Source: Gammaproteobacteria bacterium
Lineage (GTDB): Bacteria; Pseudomonadota; Gammaproteobacteria; UBA4575
Length of the DNA: 64,000 nt
Assembly: GCA_965203475.1 (NCBI GenBank)
Contig: OZ241890.1
Span: 2,089,423-2,153,422 of the forward strand
Reading direction: 5' to 3'
Numbering within the stretch: position 1 is the stretch's first letter; the number at the start of each line of letters is the position of its first letter. Shown here one piece after another: positions 4,332 to 64,000 of this stretch. Made by a program: the position numbers and the translations under genes. A model generated the notes under the pieces. It searched no databases and was not told the origin of the DNA. It saw only the letters and a program-made list of their open reading frames with translations.

Positions 4332-4742
4332 TTACTTTTTAAGACTGTCCCTAATTTCGCGTAATAAAACAATATCTTCAGCAGGTGCTGCAGGTTTTTC
4401 TTCTTCTTTTCTTTTCATATTATTTAAGGCCTTAATGATTAAGAAAATAACAAACGCTATAATTAAAAAATTAATAAACGCTTGTATAAACGCGCCGTAA
4501 CCAAATACCGAAGCCCCTGCATCTTTGGCGGCTGCTAACGTTGCATAATTACCTTCACCTAAATTAATAAAGTGGTTGGTAAAATCTACACCTCCGGTGA
4601 ATAGCCCAATGATTGGCATTAATAAATCATCCACCAAGGAACCCACTACAGCAGATACAGCAGCGCCGATAATAATTCCAGTCGCCATATCCATCATGTT
4701 TCCTTTTATTGCAAATTCTTTAAATTCGCTGATCATGCCCAT
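4332..4742 (-). CDS. mscL: large-conductance mechanosensitive channel
   Basis: 136 aa. [29 protein letters not shown] matches the MscL N-terminus and TM1. Confidence 0.9.
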
Positions 4743-5985: not shown

Positions 5986-6969
5986 TTAATTCGTAGTTAT
6001 GGGTTGTGGTTCATTAATACTATCGGCTTGTATGCCAAGTCGATTAAATAAGGCTTGGTCTTTATTGGTTGCAGGATTATCAGCGGTTAATAAAGTTTCA
6101 CCATAAAAAATTGAATTAGCGCCTGCAAAAAAACATAAAGCCTGAGTTTGATCATTCATATCATCACGACCAGCTGATAATCGCACATAGGACATTGGCA
6201 TTAATATTCGTGCGACCGCAATCGTGCGTATAAATTCAAAAGCATCTAGTTTTTCAATGCCGTGCAAGGGCGTGCCCTTAATTTGAATTAACATATTGAT
6301 GGGTACAGATTCTGGGTGTTCAGGCAAGCAGGCAAGCTGATGTAATAGACCAGCACGGTCAACACGTGACTCACCCATGCCTAAAATTCCACCACAACAT
6401 ACATTAATATCCGCATTTCGCACATGCTGTAACGTTTGCATGCGATCGTCATACGTGCGTGTCGTAATAATGTTGCCGTAAAATTCTGGAGAGGTATCTA
6501 AATTATGATTGTAGTAATCCAATCCAGCCTGTTTTAAGCGCTGTGCTTGTTCGGCGGTGAGCATACCGAGTGTGACACAGGTTTCGAGCCCCAGTTGTTT
6601 CACTTCCTGAATCATCTCGATTACATAATCGATATGTTTATCCGTGGGGCTGCGCCAAGCAGCCCCCATGCAAAATCGACTGGCGCCATTTTGTTTAGCC
6701 ACTAATGCATTTTCTTTGACTTCTTCGAGGGGCAATAAGCGCTCACGTTCTATATTAGTGTCGTAATGACCACTTTGTGGGCAATAAGCACAGTCTTCTG
6801 AGCAGGCGCCGGTTTTAATAGATAATAAGGTACTTACTTGGACCTTGTTAGGGTCATGATGCTCACGAAAAATACAATGAGCGTGATGCAGAAGATCATT
6901 AAAGGGAAGTTCAAACAGCTTTATTATTTCTGTCTTCTTCCAATCATGCCGAACACTGTTATATTGCAT
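5986..6969 (-). CDS. bioB: biotin synthase
   Basis: 327 aa. Radical-SAM CxxxCxxC ([11 protein letters not shown]) and BioB C-terminal domain. Confidence 0.9.
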
Positions 6970-7763: not shown

Positions 7764-7817
7764 TGAAATGAATGGTACTGACCTGATGCTCACATAGATA
7801 CATAACAGGAGCCAGAT

Positions 7818-8189
7818 ATGAACGATAAAACTCTTTATGAACGCCTAGGTGGTTACGAAGGAGTAATCGCTTTTGTTGAGGACTTATTACCACGCTTAGA
7901 ATCTGATCCACAGTTGGGGCGGTTTTGGCAACATCGAGGTGATGATGGTGTAGCAAGAGAAAAACAATTACTCATTGATTATTTATGTGCGAATGCTGGC
8001 GGGCCTATGTACTACACTGGACGCGATATGAAAACTTCGCATGTTGGTATGAAAATAAGTGAAAGTGATTGGTCAATATTCATGGGCCATGCAGGAGAGA
8101 CAATGAAAGCTTTAAAAGTTTCTGACCAAGAATGTAATGAAATTGCGGAGTTTGTCACGAGTTTGAAATCAGATATTGTTGAAGTTTAA
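7818..8189 (+). CDS. glbN: truncated (2/2) haemoglobin, group I-like
   Basis: 123 aa. LYERLGG...FY start and overall trHb pattern. Strong AGGAG SD 8 nt upstream. Confidence 0.7.
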   Translation: MNDKTLYERLGGYEGVIAFVEDLLPRLESDPQLGRFWQHRGDDGVAREKQLLIDYLCANAGGPMYYTGRDMKTSHVGMKISESDWSIFMGHAGETMKALKVSDQECNEIAEFVTSLKSDIVEV

Positions 8190-8297
8190 TGTCTGCTCCG
8201 ATCCTGAGCACAGGACGTGCGAATAAGAGTTACAACAGAGATGTTGTATCAAATTTAAACTTTTATAATGTCCGTTAACGACCCAAAGCGGACATAA
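8186..8297. repeat. MITE/REP-like repeat copy A (hairpin core 8268..8295)
   Basis: ...acaaacttttataATGTCCGttaacgacccaaagCGGACATaa shares the terminal hairpin and the acaaactt-aaaatgtc block with copies at 8978, 9447, 62971 and 63666. Confidence 0.7.
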
Positions 8298-8323
8298 CAT
8301 CAATTTACGAGTTAGACTTTCTG

Positions 8324-8980
8324 ATGAACAATCAAGTGCAGCGATTAATATTAATTTTAGTTGTCCTAACTTTACAATCGTGTGCAAATCAAGGGATCTA
8401 CTCGAGTCAGTACCTGAAAAAGGATAATGAGCCAAATGAATTTACTTCTGATGTGATAGGTGTCGAATTGACACTACCCAGAGGAACAGAATGGGAATTG
8501 GCACACGATAAAGCGAGTAGTGACGAATATATTAAGGAATGGATTCCCAAAGGCGAAAGTATAAATACTTATTCCTGGATTATAGTTGAACAGAAACTGC
8601 ATTTTGGTCACTCAGATACTGCACTAACAACGCATTTGACATTATTTGATGTTGCAAGAAAGGCATGTGTAGATGTGTTAGTTTTTGGTCCAGATCAGAT
8701 TGATGTTAATGGGCATAAAACTACAGCAGGCCGTGCGATATGTTCAAATCAAAGAGGAAAAAGTTACGGCACACTAATGGATCAAAGGATAATTGCTAGT
8801 GGTAACTATGCTTTTATTATTACTAGCGAATTAAGGACACCTCCAAGTAATAAAGCTGGTGTTATTAAGTTTGAAAATCAGTATGACTCAGCATTACTTT
8901 CGAGAAGGCAAGACGTATCCTCTAAATTTATTAGACAAAATTTGAAGGTATGTTTTAAATCTACGGGGACATGTGAATGA
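8324..8980 (+). CDS. hypothetical lipoprotein
   Basis: 218 aa. Signal peptide with lipobox-like LTLQSC. No recognisable catalytic motif. Confidence 0.5.
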   Translation: MNNQVQRLILILVVLTLQSCANQGIYSSQYLKKDNEPNEFTSDVIGVELTLPRGTEWELAHDKASSDEYIKEWIPKGESINTYSWIIVEQKLHFGHSDTALTTHLTLFDVARKACVDVLVFGPDQIDVNGHKTTAGRAICSNQRGKSYGTLMDQRIIASGNYAFIITSELRTPPSNKAGVIKFENQYDSALLSRRQDVSSKFIRQNLKVCFKSTGTCE

Positions 8981-9080
8981 CCGCTAACGGCCGAATGCAG
9001 ACATAATTTGAGGGATAACAGGTTAGAATCAAGTAATTACAAACTTAAAATGTCTGTTAACAATCCAAAGCGGACATTCT
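8978..9080. repeat. MITE/REP-like repeat copy B
   Basis: tgaccgctaacggccgaatgcagacataatttgagggataacaggttagaatcaagtaattacaaacttaaaatgtctgttaacaatccaaagcggacat. Starts on the stop codon of the lipoprotein gene. Confidence 0.75.
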
Positions 9081-9102
9081 AATTATTAACTACTAATACC
9101 AA

Positions 9103-9429
9103 ATGGAAGCATTTGCTGAAATAAATTGTGCAAATATTAAAGATTGGGATTCATTCCACGATGAGTTTCAATCCGCAATGGGCTTTTTTGAAGGATATGG
9201 GAGAAACTTAAATGCGTGGATTGATTGTATGGGTGATATGTATACCAATGGAGAATACGAGAGCCTAACTAAGTTTAATTTAAATGATGGTGACAGATTC
9301 ACGTTAGTACTTAGAAATTCAGAAATGTTTGCAAAAAATTATCCTGGCATACTCCAGGCATTTTCAGAATGCGCAGCATCTGTAAATACAGGAGAAAATA
9401 AGACACATTTTTATGTCGAATTTAAGTAA
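9103..9429 (+). CDS. barstar-like RNase inhibitor (immunity protein, PF01337-like)
   Basis: 108 aa. IN..NI..WDSFHDEF......FFEGYGRNLNAWIDCM aligns with barstar [37 protein letters not shown], and the C-terminal half also lines up with barstar. Confidence 0.65.
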   Translation: MEAFAEINCANIKDWDSFHDEFQSAMGFFEGYGRNLNAWIDCMGDMYTNGEYESLTKFNLNDGDRFTLVLRNSEMFAKNYPGILQAFSECAASVNTGENKTHFYVEFK

Positions 9430-9446
9430 ATCTAGTAATTATTTAA

Positions 9447-9550
9447 TGACCGCTTTTGACCGAAAGATGACATGATTGAGGATGAATCAGGTTGGAATCA
9501 ATGAACTACAAACTTAAAATGTCCGCTTCTGTCCGAAAGCGGACGTTTTA
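9447..9550. repeat. MITE/REP-like repeat copy C (strongest hairpin GTCCGCTT-n8-AAGCGGAC)
   Basis: tgaccgcttttgaccgaaagatgacatgattgaggatgaatcaggttggaatcaatgaactacaaacttaaaatgtccgcttctgtccgaaagcggacgtttta. Confidence 0.75.
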
Positions 9551-9706
9551 AATTAACCGAACTTTAATCTGTTGCATCGTCCCTGATGGAAATCTTATTC
9601 GCATATCCCTATGCTCACTATTGGCCGAAATCGGGCATTATAAAAAGATAGAATCTGTTCGAATCATCCAAGATTCGACTCATATTCGCGCATCCATGCG
9701 CTCAGG

Positions 9707-9757
9707 CACGAAAGCGGACGTTTTATATTCTTCTAACTTTAACCGGCTGCATCGTCC
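9707..9757. repeat. partial repeat (right-end module only), tandem to 9533..9582
   Basis: cgaaagcggacgttttatattcttctaactttaaccggctgcatcgtcc resembles ccgaaagcggacgttttaaattaaccgaactttaatctgttgcatcgtcc. Confidence 0.55.
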
Positions 9758-9773
9758 TAGCTCTCACTTGTGT

Positions 9774-62659: not shown

Positions 62660-62908
62660 ATGTGGGGACGAAAAAAAGCAAATAAAGTTGACTCGTCGAT
62701 ACAAAAATCTGTGTTGTTAGATCGCAGAAGTGAAAAAGTTGATCGACGATCCTTTGGACCGCCTACAAAGTTTCCTTTTATTGATACAAAAGGGAAGGTT
62801 ATAAAAGTTGATCGTCGTGCTGTGCCTGACCGTCGCATTAATAACATTGAAGTGAAAGAAGATCATCTTTCATTTGATATGTCTCGTTTCGATAAATCTC
62901 AAAAATAA
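62660..62908 (+). CDS. small basic protein with four (V/P)DRR repeats
   Basis: 82 aa. GGAGA SD 7 nt upstream. DNA-level direct repeat aaagttgatcg(a/t)cg at 62728 and 62805. Confidence 0.5.
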   Translation: MWGRKKANKVDSSIQKSVLLDRRSEKVDRRSFGPPTKFPFIDTKGKVIKVDRRAVPDRRINNIEVKEDHLSFDMSRFDKSQK

Positions 62909-62970
62909 AAAATATCATAGTAGGCCCAGTAGGACTTGAGCCTAGGACCAAAGGATCATCCTCTTTGCCG

Positions 62971-62995
62971 TGTACTAACGGCCAATAGTGGACAT
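62971..62995. repeat. degenerate copy of the repeat hairpin module
   Basis: tgtactaacggccaatagtggacat resembles tgtccgttaacgacccaaagcggacat. Confidence 0.4.
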
Positions 62996-63050
62996 TAAGA
63001 ATTTTAAGAAATATTAGCCATATAGAAAATGGCATTAAGTGGAAACATTG

Positions 63051-63377
63051 TTATGACACTTCATCCCAATGTTCAACCGCTTCCCCACGTACATCGATTT
63101 CGTACCTAAAGGTATGTCGGGTTCCATCAAGTACAAACTTTTTAATTCTATTGTCTTCGTAAATCATTTCTCTTCTAGACGAAGATAGTGGGTCAGCACC
63201 AGGATGAAATATTCTAAATGCATCTGTATTTTTATGTTGTTTCATGATTGCATCAGACTTTAGTTTCCATGAGAGTAATTTTGCGGCTTTATCCCAGTTA
63301 TCGCCTTGTACAGAGGGAAGCCGATCATAAAATTCATACCAAATTACAAATAGTAGTATGAATAACGCAGTGAGCAT
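63051..63377 (-). CDS. hypothetical membrane protein (start taken at MLTALFILLF)
   Basis: ATG overlaps the upstream stop in a TAATG junction. N-terminal TM then roughly 85-aa soluble domain. Confidence 0.5.
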   Translation of the reverse strand: MLTALFILLFVIWYEFYDRLPSVQGDNWDKAAKLLSWKLKSDAIMKQHKNTDAFRIFHPGADPLSSSRREMIYEDNRIKKFVLDGTRHTFRYEIDVRGEAVEHWDEVS

Positions 63378-63664
63378 TACAATTGCCACAATTGATCTAT
63401 CTCTTTTACAATTAGTGCATGAGATCCAACAATCAGTAATACCAATACAGCAATAAATGCTAGGAAGCGTAATACATTTTTTTCTTTTTGAATATTTTGT
63501 GTAACACAATTATCACATAACGGAACCGCAAGAGTGCCAATTGGTCTATAAATATTCTTAGTGTCGGTCATGGTTCCACATACAGATACTTCTTTCCCGT
63601 ACCATCCATATTCTTGTGTATATACAGATTTTGTAGGGGCGTTACATTGTTCACATTTGCTCAT
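63377..63664 (-). CDS. zinc-ribbon membrane protein
   Basis: 95 aa. CEQC...17 aa...C...CDNC four-Cys ribbon then TM helix FLAFIAVLVLLIVGSHALIV. Confidence 0.5.
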   Translation of the reverse strand: MSKCEQCNAPTKSVYTQEYGWYGKEVSVCGTMTDTKNIYRPIGTLAVPLCDNCVTQNIQKEKNVLRFLAFIAVLVLLIVGSHALIVKEIDQLWQL

Positions 63665-63665
63665 A

Positions 63666-63747
63666 TGTCCGTTTCGGGTCGTTATCAGACATTATTAAGT
63701 TTGTAGTTCATTGATTCCAACTTAATGAAATGTGTCCCAATCGGTCA
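63666..63747. repeat. MITE/REP-like repeat copy E (inverted orientation), abutting the start codon at 63664
   Basis: Reverse complement tgaccgattgggacacatttcattaagttggaatcaatgaactacaaacttaataatgtctgataacgacccgaaacggacat matches copies B and C almost base for base. Confidence 0.75.
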
Positions 63748-64000
63748 TTCAGCTAATTTTGTTTCACTATAGGTTTTACGAAAAGTAACCATTGAAGAAC
63801 GAATAAAACCATACTTCTGATAGAATTTATGAGCGCCAGCATTATCTGAATCAGTAAGTAAAGTGATACGTTTGCAGCCTTTATGCATAGCAATTTCTAA
63901 GCAGTAATCAATCAACTTAGAACCAACTCCTTGCCCACGTGAATCTGGTAAAACTACCATATCTTCAAGGATTGCAACTTGCCCCCCTAGTGCAGTTGAA
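63745..64000 (-). CDS. GNAT N-acetyltransferase, C-terminal part (gene continues past the window edge)
   Basis: Acetyl-CoA motif A (VLPDSRGQGVGSKL). ORF is open to position 64000. Confidence 0.65.
   Translation of the reverse strand, partial: STALGGQVAILEDMVVLPDSRGQGVGSKLIDYCLEIAMHKGCKRITLLTDSDNAGAHKFYQKYGFIRSSMVTFRKTYSETKLAE

Follow-up and report, generated by a model that had tools for sequence, protein, structure and literature searches.

We describe a family of short repeats in a 64,000-nt stretch of contig OZ241890.1 (assembly GCA_965203475.1, positions 2,089,423 to 2,153,422 of the forward strand; the whole stretch is called the window below), from a member of the gammaproteobacterial lineage UBA4575. 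The repeats are real copies, far above chance, of a composite element, intergenic and 103 or 113 nt long, that consists of a 28-nt palindrome (hp1), a core and a second 28-nt palindrome (hp2). With moderate confidence, we read this element as the punctuation of gene cassette arrays, serving both as a recombination junction and as an expression adaptor. The palindromes resemble repetitive extragenic palindromic (REP) sequences, used here to punctuate cassette arrays and combined with an in-built leader reading frame, and the element may represent a means of gene shuffling and expression that has not been described before.

Results

A composite element with two related palindromes

The first palindrome, hp1, reads ATGWCCGCT-ATTGGCCGAA-AGCRGACAT. 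It is followed by a core of 45 or 55 nt that carries the near-invariant string GGTTGGAAT and that in the window copies reads GGTT(A/G)GAATCAA...ACAAACTTAAAATG, and then by hp2, ATGWCYGCT-WACGACCCAA-AGCGGACAT, whose loop is WACGACCCAA. The starts of hp1 and hp2 lie 73 nt apart in the window copies, which belong to a short class, so that the single terminal stem described in the original prediction, a note made from the sequence of the window, has to be replaced by two related 28-nt palindromes. In our own comparison of the consensus sequences, hp2 resembles hp1 about equally in direct and inverted register. The two-hairpin build, like the arrays in related genomes and the short frame conserved in the 3′ half (both described below), is absent from the original prediction.

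Several independent searches of the window recovered the same units. A repeat search returned a 107-nt pair (8976-9082 and 9445-9551, 71% identity), a 33-nt hairpin unit present five times (8263, 8972, 9045, 9441 and 9514) and a 49-nt direct repeat (9534-9582 and 9709-9757, 84% identity). With at most one mismatch, AAAGCGGACAT occurs six times, all within 8285-9721, versus 1.4 occurrences expected. A scan of the 64 kb with a position weight matrix (PWM) for the hairpin gave nine sites in total, all in two loci (7.7-9.8 kb and 63 kb), eight of which score 17-47 bits; the sites at 8268, 8977, 9050, 9446, 9519 and 9611 in the main locus score 25-47 bits. The ninth, a relic at 7768-7795 (4.5 bits), is the only place besides the clear hairpins that exceeds the maximum of the shuffled window, which is -3.4 bits. 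That the repeat is more than a local tandem duplication, as the original prediction supposed, is borne out by a copy 54 kb away in the window and by upwards of 130 full copies found in other genomes.

When one genome per species was scanned with an exact pattern, seven true loci were obtained, in uncultured Gammaproteobacteria or 'Thiotrichales' metagenome-assembled genomes (MAGs) of 35-40% GC, and a second pattern yielded 67 metagenome contigs. The family is thus dispersed in a clade of uncultured low-GC marine Gammaproteobacteria, on about 70 contigs, the related sequences being MAG or metagenome fragments of at most ~14 kb. An nhmmer profile built from the copies found 133 full elements, 125 of them distinct; an alignment of 104 full elements was used for the frame and spacing statistics. 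Copies found by pattern are biased at the pattern positions, and the key statistics were repeated on unbiased copies. Conservation of the element is about 80-90% among genomes of 35-40% GC, and in unrelated contexts it has the same, sharply defined ends (AATGWCCGCT... at one side and ...AGCGGACATT, the ACATT end, at the other).

A PWM scan of these sequences gave 400 non-redundant hairpins, with shuffles scoring below 0 bits. The hairpins fall into two discrete loop types, ATTGGCCGAA (n = 204) and WACGACCCAA (n = 176), with only six hybrids, and a lone hairpin of either type can replace the full element. The spacing from hp1 to hp2 is 83 nt in about 80 copies, 73 nt in 24 and 59 nt in three. 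What separates the two length classes is a single block of exactly 10 nt that follows hp1; this difference equals one helical turn, yet it may simply mark two subfamilies. In the first element of the array in locus L011 (7080-7140, minus strand), after a nuoN-like gene, the stem is changed and the hp1 loop is kept (TCGCG-TATTGGTTGA-CGCGA), the sole case seen of an altered stem with a retained loop.

The element was not found in plasmid and phage collections. Viral contigs gave zero matches to the full-element pattern and five to the hp1 pattern, three of which are true lone hairpins in high-GC contigs. Lone hp1-type hairpins (GWCCGCTATTGGCCGAAAGCRGAC) in IMG/VR contigs lie at L079:289-316, L081:5701-5728 and L083:2637-2664, 4615-4642 and 6257-6284; these contigs have 51-57% GC and carry no full elements, and their neighbouring genes (a VapE-like primase, DUF6932 and unknowns) are uninformative. 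The occurrence of lone hairpins in such high-GC viral-like contigs indicates that the host range of the 28-nt palindrome is much wider than that of the composite element. A literature search by the element's sequence strings returned nothing relevant. GC skew, considered as a means of relating hairpin strand to replication, tracks only local gene orientation.

Arrays of small accessory genes

Over all loci, 94% of neighbouring hairpins lie on the same strand. The intervals between hairpins (n = 197) have a median length of 591 nt (interquartile range 410-880), and in 143 of 187 intervals a single open reading frame (ORF) fills at least 60% of the space, 81% of these ORFs being co-oriented with the hairpins. 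JANQOB010000003.1, which comprises loci L004 and L011, carries no fewer than 16 full elements, together with several lone hairpins, on one strand, 400-1000 nt apart, with each interval filled by one or two small same-strand ORFs. Upstream ORFs often end at the edge of hp1, in 21 cases with a TGA within ATGA, as does the lipoprotein gene of the window; at 164 hairpins a co-oriented ORF ends between -60 and +15 nt from the hairpin start.

The cassette ORFs are unrelated to one another and accessory (NYN, DinB, DUF6572, DUF2846, DUF6869, MORN, DUF1428, DUF1801, barstar and GNAT), and many match no family; the 148 flanking ORFs of at least 170 aa match 181 Pfam families, none of which recurs more than three times. 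The arrays start directly 3′ of the stop codon of a core gene, namely a nuoN-like gene in L011, hemB in L005 and comF in the window, and a genome may hold several array loci, with two in this window and four in WLWD01000004.1. The suspicion voiced in the original prediction, that the repeats delivered the accessory genes beside them, is supported to the extent that the family is tightly tied to accessory genes and delimits cassettes that recur in different contexts.

Hairpins as the boundaries of exchanged units

Several cassettes are common to two contigs (83-98% identity) and lie there between flanking sequences that are unrelated (L002/L055, L039/L077, L016/L060 and L024/L055). The homology of these shared cassettes begins and ends within the 28-nt hairpins, and therefore the exchanged unit appears to be the stretch between hairpins. 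For the cassette shared by L039 and L077, the preceding hairpin is hp1-type in one contig and hp2-type in the other, and for that shared by L016 and L060, the hairpin types differ on both flanks. In the pairs L002/L055 and L024/L055, one contig has a full element where the other has a lone hairpin and then unrelated sequence, which suggests that the full element is one of several ways of joining two units. The DUF4389 flank of the window is conserved in L017, where the orthologue (78% protein identity) adjoins an array with three different cassettes.

A conserved reading frame in the 3′ half of the element

With its G-run like a Shine-Dalgarno (SD) sequence and its TTG start, the 3′ half of the element looks like a leader small ORF (sORF) read through hp2. 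The frame, TTG GAA ... ATG TCC GCT AAC GAC CCA AAG CGG ACA, begins with a TTG GAA that lies inside the near-invariant GGTTGGAAT, runs through hp2 and in 100 of 104 copies meets no stop before the element ends; stops are thus present in four copies in this frame (frame 0) and in 77 and 87 copies in the other two. The 21-nt stretch from GAA to ATG is variable in sequence and fixed in length. It contains a stop in only 1 of 103 copies in frame 0 versus 28 and 72 in the other frames, and nucleotide shuffles of the stretch gave a mean of 48 stops, with a minimum of 30 in 2000 trials. The bias persists with one representative per sequence cluster (n = 14; stop counts of 0 versus 6 and 6) and in 31 copies that the search patterns could not have selected (0, 14 and 20). 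Of these same 31 unbiased copies, 30 have the TTG and 28 have a G-run (GGGG, GGAG or GAGG) at a distance of 5-16 nt upstream of it.

An in-frame stop is found 5 or 8 codons upstream of TTG in the long class, and the short class of L004/L011 has an in-frame ATG 5 codons upstream. In most copies the leader frame ends 1-25 nt past the element. The predicted peptide, (L/M)ES-x6-M(S/T)A(N/Y)DPKRT, is poorly conserved in its middle, which suggests that translation itself matters more than the product. At L011:6491-6593 and L016:2812-2914 (minus strand), the frame from the hp2 ATG enters the downstream cassette ORF (287 and 152 codons, respectively); these proteins would begin with a hairpin-encoded, MSGIDPKRT-like sequence.

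Tests for transposition, structured RNA and a recombinase

The original prediction offered two identities for the repeat, a miniature transposable element with inverted repeats (MITE) and a family of structured RNA modules, and neither was supported. Terminal inverted repeats are present (AATGTCCGCT ... AGCGGACATT). Target-site duplications of 2-9 bp, however, looked for at three offsets around 107 full elements and around 181 lone hairpins, occur only at chance frequency, and no transposase was found nearby; a DDE-type MITE was rejected on the lack of target-site duplication. The 64 kb gave no gathering-level hit in Rfam 15, the best relaxed hit having E = 0.27. Although about 88-90% of alignment cells pair in both the two-hairpin fold and the single long hairpin, 98 of 500 column shuffles reach the observed value for the former and 495 of 500 for the latter, and RNAalifold returned -0.34 kcal/mol, essentially no consensus structure. 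Because neither fold beats the shuffles, it is the sequence that is conserved, and not the pairing. For the consensus itself, the predicted fold is a single long hairpin containing a bulged base and internal loops (-17.6 kcal/mol, z = -4.7). A candidate covariation in this long hairpin, R at hp1 position 23 versus Y at hp2 position 6, was discarded, as the two positions vary independently. No tRNA or tmRNA origin was found, and the idea of a DNA-uptake sequence was rejected because in the 64 kb every occurrence of the arm motif lies within an element and none is dispersed.

No recombinase, whether tyrosine, Y1/REP-associated tyrosine transposase (RAYT) or any other recurrent type, and no Xer homologue was found in the ~470 kb that flank more than 400 hairpins. 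These searches used motif regular expressions and, with phmmer, IntI1, XerD, IS608 TnpA and E. coli RAYT sequences that served only as probes. In a Pfam search of the 148 flanking ORFs of at least 170 aa, no recombinase stood among the 25 most frequent families listed. The hairpin parses as 11 + 6 + 11 and is in this sense dif-like; an Xer/dif-type site was nevertheless rejected, since the sequence is unrelated to dif and 94% of neighbouring sites share one orientation rather than alternating.

Copies of the element in the window

Related repeat sequence lies in every gap of the 7.7-9.8 kb region, and thus the earlier statement that the elements fill every intergenic gap holds. At least three full copies (A, B and C) plus tail fragments had been described there. 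Two of these, B and C, are indeed full, and the tails correspond to the 49-nt direct repeat; the remaining copy, A, has a variant core and a decayed hp1. Element B (8976-9078, plus strand; nhmmer E = 6e-29) is a short-class copy of 103 nt composed of hp1 at 8977-9004 (38.0 bits), a core with GGTTAGAAT and hp2 at 9050-9077 (36.4 bits). It begins, as previously noted, on the TGA stop codon of the lipoprotein gene (8978-8980), and its leader frame, read from the sequence, runs from TTG 9008 or ATG 9050 to TAA 9082. Element C (9445-9547, plus strand; E = 5.5e-31), also of the short class, comprises hp1 at 9446-9473 (34.4 bits), GGTTGGAAT at 9490-9498 and hp2 at 9519-9546 (32.9 bits), with a predicted leader sORF of 19 codons on the plus strand, from TTG 9492 to TAA 9551 (9492-9551).

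Element A (8186-8296, plus strand) starts at the stop codon of the truncated haemoglobin (trHb) gene (TAA 8187-8189) and consists of a decayed hp1 (~8189-8219), a core of a second type (type-2) and an intact hp2 at 8268-8295 (47.4 bits). Its common part with the block of B and C is limited to hp2 and ~15 nt before hp2, and of the leader frame it retains only the hp2 mini-frame, a mini-ORF from ATG 8268 to TAA 8297 that spans the hairpin. The type-2 core reads roughly GAGCA.AGGA..TGCGAATAAGA...CAG.GA.G.TG and occurs twice in the window, at 8196-8267 and 9547-9610. It is joined to hp2 elsewhere too, in L010, L012, L020, L033 and L040, the type-2 cores there lying at L010:6577-6692, L012:896-952, L020:1417-1530 and 1597-1655, L033:2238-2331 and L040:1591-1693.

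The gap at 9547-9773 was said to hold a tail. It does, and it also contains a sixth hairpin, at 9611-9638, and an inverted type-2 copy. This inverted element (9512-9639, minus strand), an nhmmer hit that aligns with copy A, stands tail to tail with C and is made up of the hairpin at 9611-9638, the core at 9547-9610 and the palindrome at 9519-9546, which it shares with C. The two type-2 cores account for an inverted repeat, 8213-8258 versus 9563-9608, that is 74% complementary, and the two type-2 copies, in inverted orientation, bracket the lipoprotein and barstar cassettes. The second 49-nt tail copy (9709-9757, plus strand) consists of a half hairpin, AAAGCGGACGT, and ~38 nt, and repeats 9534-9582. 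Between them, at 9640-9708 and before the DUF4389 gene, are two small perfect palindromes unrelated to hp1 and hp2, GAATC-tgttc-GAATC..GATTCGA and GCGCAT-cc-ATGCGC.

A short-word BLAST search of the gaps against the whole window revealed the extra copy, element D (63660-63757, minus strand; E = 3.4e-19), between a GNAT gene and a small ORF. It has a degenerate hp1, an intact core and hp2 at 63665-63692 (35.4 bits), and its leader frame is broken by a 1-nt insertion. A decayed hp1 at 62968-62995 (minus strand, 16.8 bits), with the sequence AATGTCCACTATTGGCCGTTAG, closes the cassette downstream of D.

Genes and cassettes in the window

The gene order at 7.7-9.8 kb is comF-like, trHb, predicted lipoprotein and barstar-like, all on the plus strand, followed by a DUF4389 gene in convergent orientation and by ubiA. 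The main locus consists of three cassettes (trHb, lipoprotein and barstar) between comF and the DUF4389 gene, and the 63-kb site is a single-cassette locus. Cassette 1, the trHb gene (7818-8189, plus strand; Pfam Bac_globin, E = 2e-13), is bracketed by element A and by the relic hairpin between comF and trHb (7768-7795, plus strand), which matches the hairpin consensus at 19 of 29 positions; the presence of this relic implies that trHb is itself a cassette. Cassette 2 (8324-8980, plus strand) encodes a predicted lipoprotein with no Pfam family, and its stop codon, TGA 8978-8980, lies within element B. Cassette 3 (9103-9429, plus strand) is the barstar-like gene (Pfam Barstar, E = 1.7e-15).

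Homologues of the lipoprotein (39-46% identity) are found in high-GC contigs that carry no hairpins. In one of these, a 51% GC contig, an IS110-family transposase (DEDD_Tnp_IS110 + Transposase_20) adjoins the 39%-identical homologue (L084:3043-4270). This adjacency is probably a coincidence; in published work, IS110/IS1111 elements target REP and attC palindromes.

The second cassette locus (62968-63757, minus strand), 54 kb away, contains the GNAT gene, D, two small ORFs and the decayed hp1. Its cassette (63051-63664, minus strand) carries a 95-aa zinc-ribbon/membrane ORF and an overlapping 152-aa ORF, neither of which has a Pfam family and which are possibly one frameshifted gene. Beside this locus, an 82-aa ORF (62660-62908, plus strand) contains a repeated (V)DRRS/DRR motif and has no Pfam match.

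Discussion

A proposed recombination junction and expression adaptor

We propose that the 28-nt palindromes are the sites at which cassettes would be joined and swapped, and that the core would act as an expression adaptor on the array transcript. The enzyme responsible for exchange would be sequence-specific, act on DNA and be encoded at another place in the genome; the strict conservation of sequence, including the loops, and the existence of two discrete hairpin types point to recognition by such a protein. By analogy, the 11-6-11 parsing of the hairpin resembles the core site of a tyrosine recombinase, and the same site would re-form from single-stranded DNA in the long-hairpin fold, in a manner close to that of attC. 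As a fallback, RecA might exchange near-identical 28-mers after DNA uptake, with the hairpins serving as portable homology. Because any crossover is concealed within sequence that all copies have in common, and because hybrid loops are scarce, the enzymatic and RecA routes are inseparable in these data. On the transcript, the G-run, with its SD spacing, and the TTG start would launch a leader ORF of ~20 codons that would be translated through hp2 and end a few to some tens of bases beyond it. Ribosomes translating it would prevent hp2 from closing and would be brought to the next cassette. Since the arrays are co-oriented on the 3′ ends of core genes, with a G-run, a start and a frame at the joints, the core probably acts on a polycistronic transcript. 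Taken to its full extent, this proposal describes a cassette capture and expression system separate from integrons, in which hp1 and hp2 are the two-specificity sites of an enzyme encoded elsewhere, the arrays were seeded at many core-gene 3′ ends, each element carries a translated leader and the captured genes are expressed from the host operon transcript; this we put forward only tentatively, as a possibility less probable than the more general reading of the element as cassette punctuation.

Several observations weigh against these proposals. The recombination step is without an enzyme, the ~470 kb of flanks having yielded neither a recombinase nor a transposase, and no strain-level insertion or excision polymorphism of a hairpin-bounded cassette was found. 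The one clean indel that was examined, L031:6645-7128 versus L034 (480 nt), proved to be a tandem paralogue event without hairpins; the indel contains a small secreted-protein gene and is bordered by a direct repeat of the start of that gene (cattgttgtc..cctcctt). A given cassette is not linked to one hairpin type, and only six hybrid loops are seen, so the crossover cannot be placed and plain homologous recombination fits equally well. As to expression, the positions of sORF stops decay roughly geometrically after the element, and a crude SD count is alike for cassette genes (13 of 65) and core genes (8 of 53). In view of these two findings translational coupling is putative, and a scarcity of SD sequences upstream of cassette genes was dropped as support for coupling because, by this crude measure, core genes are the same. 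In addition, TTGGAA-17 nt-TAAAAT can also be read as a sigma-70 promoter, in competition with the sORF. The promoter is the weaker of these two readings, because such matches are not enriched in AT-rich sequences and a transcript from that point would exclude the start of the conserved frame.

Alternative explanations

The elements might instead be selfish REP sequences or REPINs (REP doublet forming hairpins), with hp1 and hp2 as REP units and the element as a doublet copied through single-stranded DNA by a RAYT (Y1 HUH) encoded elsewhere. The link to cassettes would then be secondary, in that accessory islands tolerate insertions and homologous recombination between REPs shuffles genes. Much of the anatomy fits: the palindromes are imperfect, 28 nt long and extragenic, with 400 sites that are mostly just downstream of ORFs, and they cause no target-site duplications; the doublets are REPIN-sized and fold as one long hairpin, with loops that pair (TTGG:CCAA, CG:CG); and strand uniformity suits a single-strand mechanism. 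A single-copy RAYT would easily be missed in sampled flanks, although no Y1/RAYT homologue appeared in the ~470 kb around more than 400 hairpins. The cassette-sized, single-ORF, unrelated intervals, the cassettes with different neighbours and the conserved open frame are left unexplained by this account. REPIN populations are usually lineage-specific, whereas the element described here is ~80-90% conserved across genomes. Finally, REPs fall into two super-families defined by a GTAG or CGTC tag (PMC3733652), and neither tag is found in the hairpin ends (A-ATG... / ...CAT-T), a CGTC-like ACGTCC being present in few copies only. On balance, we regard a selfish REP/REPIN origin as rather unlikely. 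A purely regulatory intergenic module with no dedicated mobility seems to us quite unlikely. In its main form, the promoter TTGGAA-17-TAAAAT would lie between two palindromic operators of one dimeric regulator; in a variant, hp1 would be a 3′ stabiliser or terminator and the sORF with hp2 a 5′ leader; and in either form the module would spread and be homogenised by homologous recombination and gene conversion after natural transformation. Such a module would account for conservation of sequence rather than pairing, as expected of protein-bound DNA, for conserved core hexamers around a fixed, variable-sequence spacer of 17 nt, for spacing classes (73 vs 83) that differ by 10 nt, or one helical turn, for the sORF signature and for the lack of a recombinase in the flanks. 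Yet promoter-like matches are not enriched over shuffles in AT-rich sequences, and one large subfamily has TTTAAT for TAAAAT and so lacks the -11 A. A transcript from that promoter would exclude the G-run and the TTG, yet the frame is conserved; there is no T-run after hp1; and lone hairpins at junctions, like the sharp identical ends in unrelated contexts, are left unexplained.

The outward features of the arrays also raise the question of whether the elements are atypical attC sites of sedentary chromosomal integrons, the loci being clusters of attC sites lacking an integrase (CALINs) and the integrase, IntI, residing elsewhere. The same-strand layout of mostly single-ORF cassettes, each ending in an imperfect palindrome, is an integron-like trait, and cassette size, the bias in ORF orientation and gene content likewise resemble those of chromosomal integron arrays; the palindrome is of attC-like length and foldable with a bulged base and internal loops. 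The RYYYAAC/GTTRRRY core sites that an attC needs are, however, absent at or near both ends, as seen in the consensus of 125 and of 104 copies, and the flanking positions show no conserved GTT or AAC. The centre of an attC is its variable part, whereas the centre of the element is its best-conserved part. The large L011 array begins at the nuoN-like gene, not at intI/attI, a genome may hold several array loci, and no tyrosine recombinase was detected in the flanks. The lack of core sites, the conserved centre and the array start thus argue against attC; a canonical attC was rejected on core sites and array starts, and an atypical one is very improbable.

Relation to known systems

To our knowledge, among the bacterial systems that store promoterless genes as interchangeable cassettes, only integrons are well understood. 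The arrays described here have an integron-like outward architecture on a different repeat, at many chromosomal sites, with no adjacent integrase and with a built-in leader frame. If a dedicated enzyme exists, they would represent a second, independent solution to cassette capture, with small (28 nt) recombination sites. If none exists, REP-like palindromes can organise accessory genes into shufflable, self-expressing units, an outcome that would bear on the long-standing question of the purpose of REP-type repeats.

The element fails a defining test of each of four known classes: core sites and intI/attI for integrons, the tag for REPs (with no RAYT seen), target duplication for MITEs, and sequence and orientation for dif. 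Partial likenesses are nevertheless numerous. Modules bounded by pdif (Xer) sites on Acinetobacter plasmids are also delimited by 28-bp sites, and the hairpin has the 11 + 6 + 11 parsing of such sites; the pdif recombinase is host-encoded and acts in trans. The hairpin has no similarity to dif, pdif sites alternate in orientation whereas 94% share one orientation here, and our arrays are chromosomal rather than plasmid-borne. In the attI1 site of class 1 integrons, ORF-11 is similarly a short ORF with its own SD sequence, upstream of a cassette and able to feed the downstream gene, and it gives translational help to cassettes that have no initiation region. It occurs once per integron, in attI, whereas the leader frame is found in every inter-cassette element and runs through the hairpin. 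In Neisseria, neisserial intergenic mosaic elements (NIMEs), minimal mobile elements and Correia elements provide a further parallel, in that short palindromes flank small repeats and variable gene segments. NIMEs are repeat units flanked by 20-bp dRS3 palindromes, short palindromes of this kind probably promote exchange after transformation, and Correia elements also carry expression signals. The sequences are unrelated to ours, NIMEs do not form long regular arrays of one gene per unit, and Correia elements duplicate a TA target, whereas no duplication is found here.

In the nature of the repeat, the closest relatives are these NIMEs together with REPs, bacterial interspersed mosaic elements (BIMEs) and REPINs, which likewise consist of extragenic palindromes of 20-40 nt downstream of ORFs, in many copies and without target duplications, and which form ~100-nt doublets that can fold as a long hairpin. 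Our element differs from them in having no GTAG/CGTC tag and no RAYT in its flanks, in its highly conserved loops and two discrete types, in its conservation across divergent genomes, in bounding swappable cassettes and in carrying an open frame. In function and layout, the closest relative is the chromosomal integron array, exemplified by the Vibrio cholerae repeats (VCRs) of Vibrio and by CALINs. There too, short accessory ORFs on one strand are each followed by an imperfect palindrome of ~60-130 nt, the same cassette turns up in several contexts, ORFs frequently terminate within the repeat and repeats are homogeneous within a lineage. The arrays in the window and its relatives depart from that plan in that the repeat is without R''/R' core sites and is best conserved at its centre instead of its ends, is composed of two autonomous 28-nt palindromes that also occur singly, is found at many loci that start after core genes rather than at intI/attI, with no integrase in the flanks, and carries a conserved leader frame in each copy.

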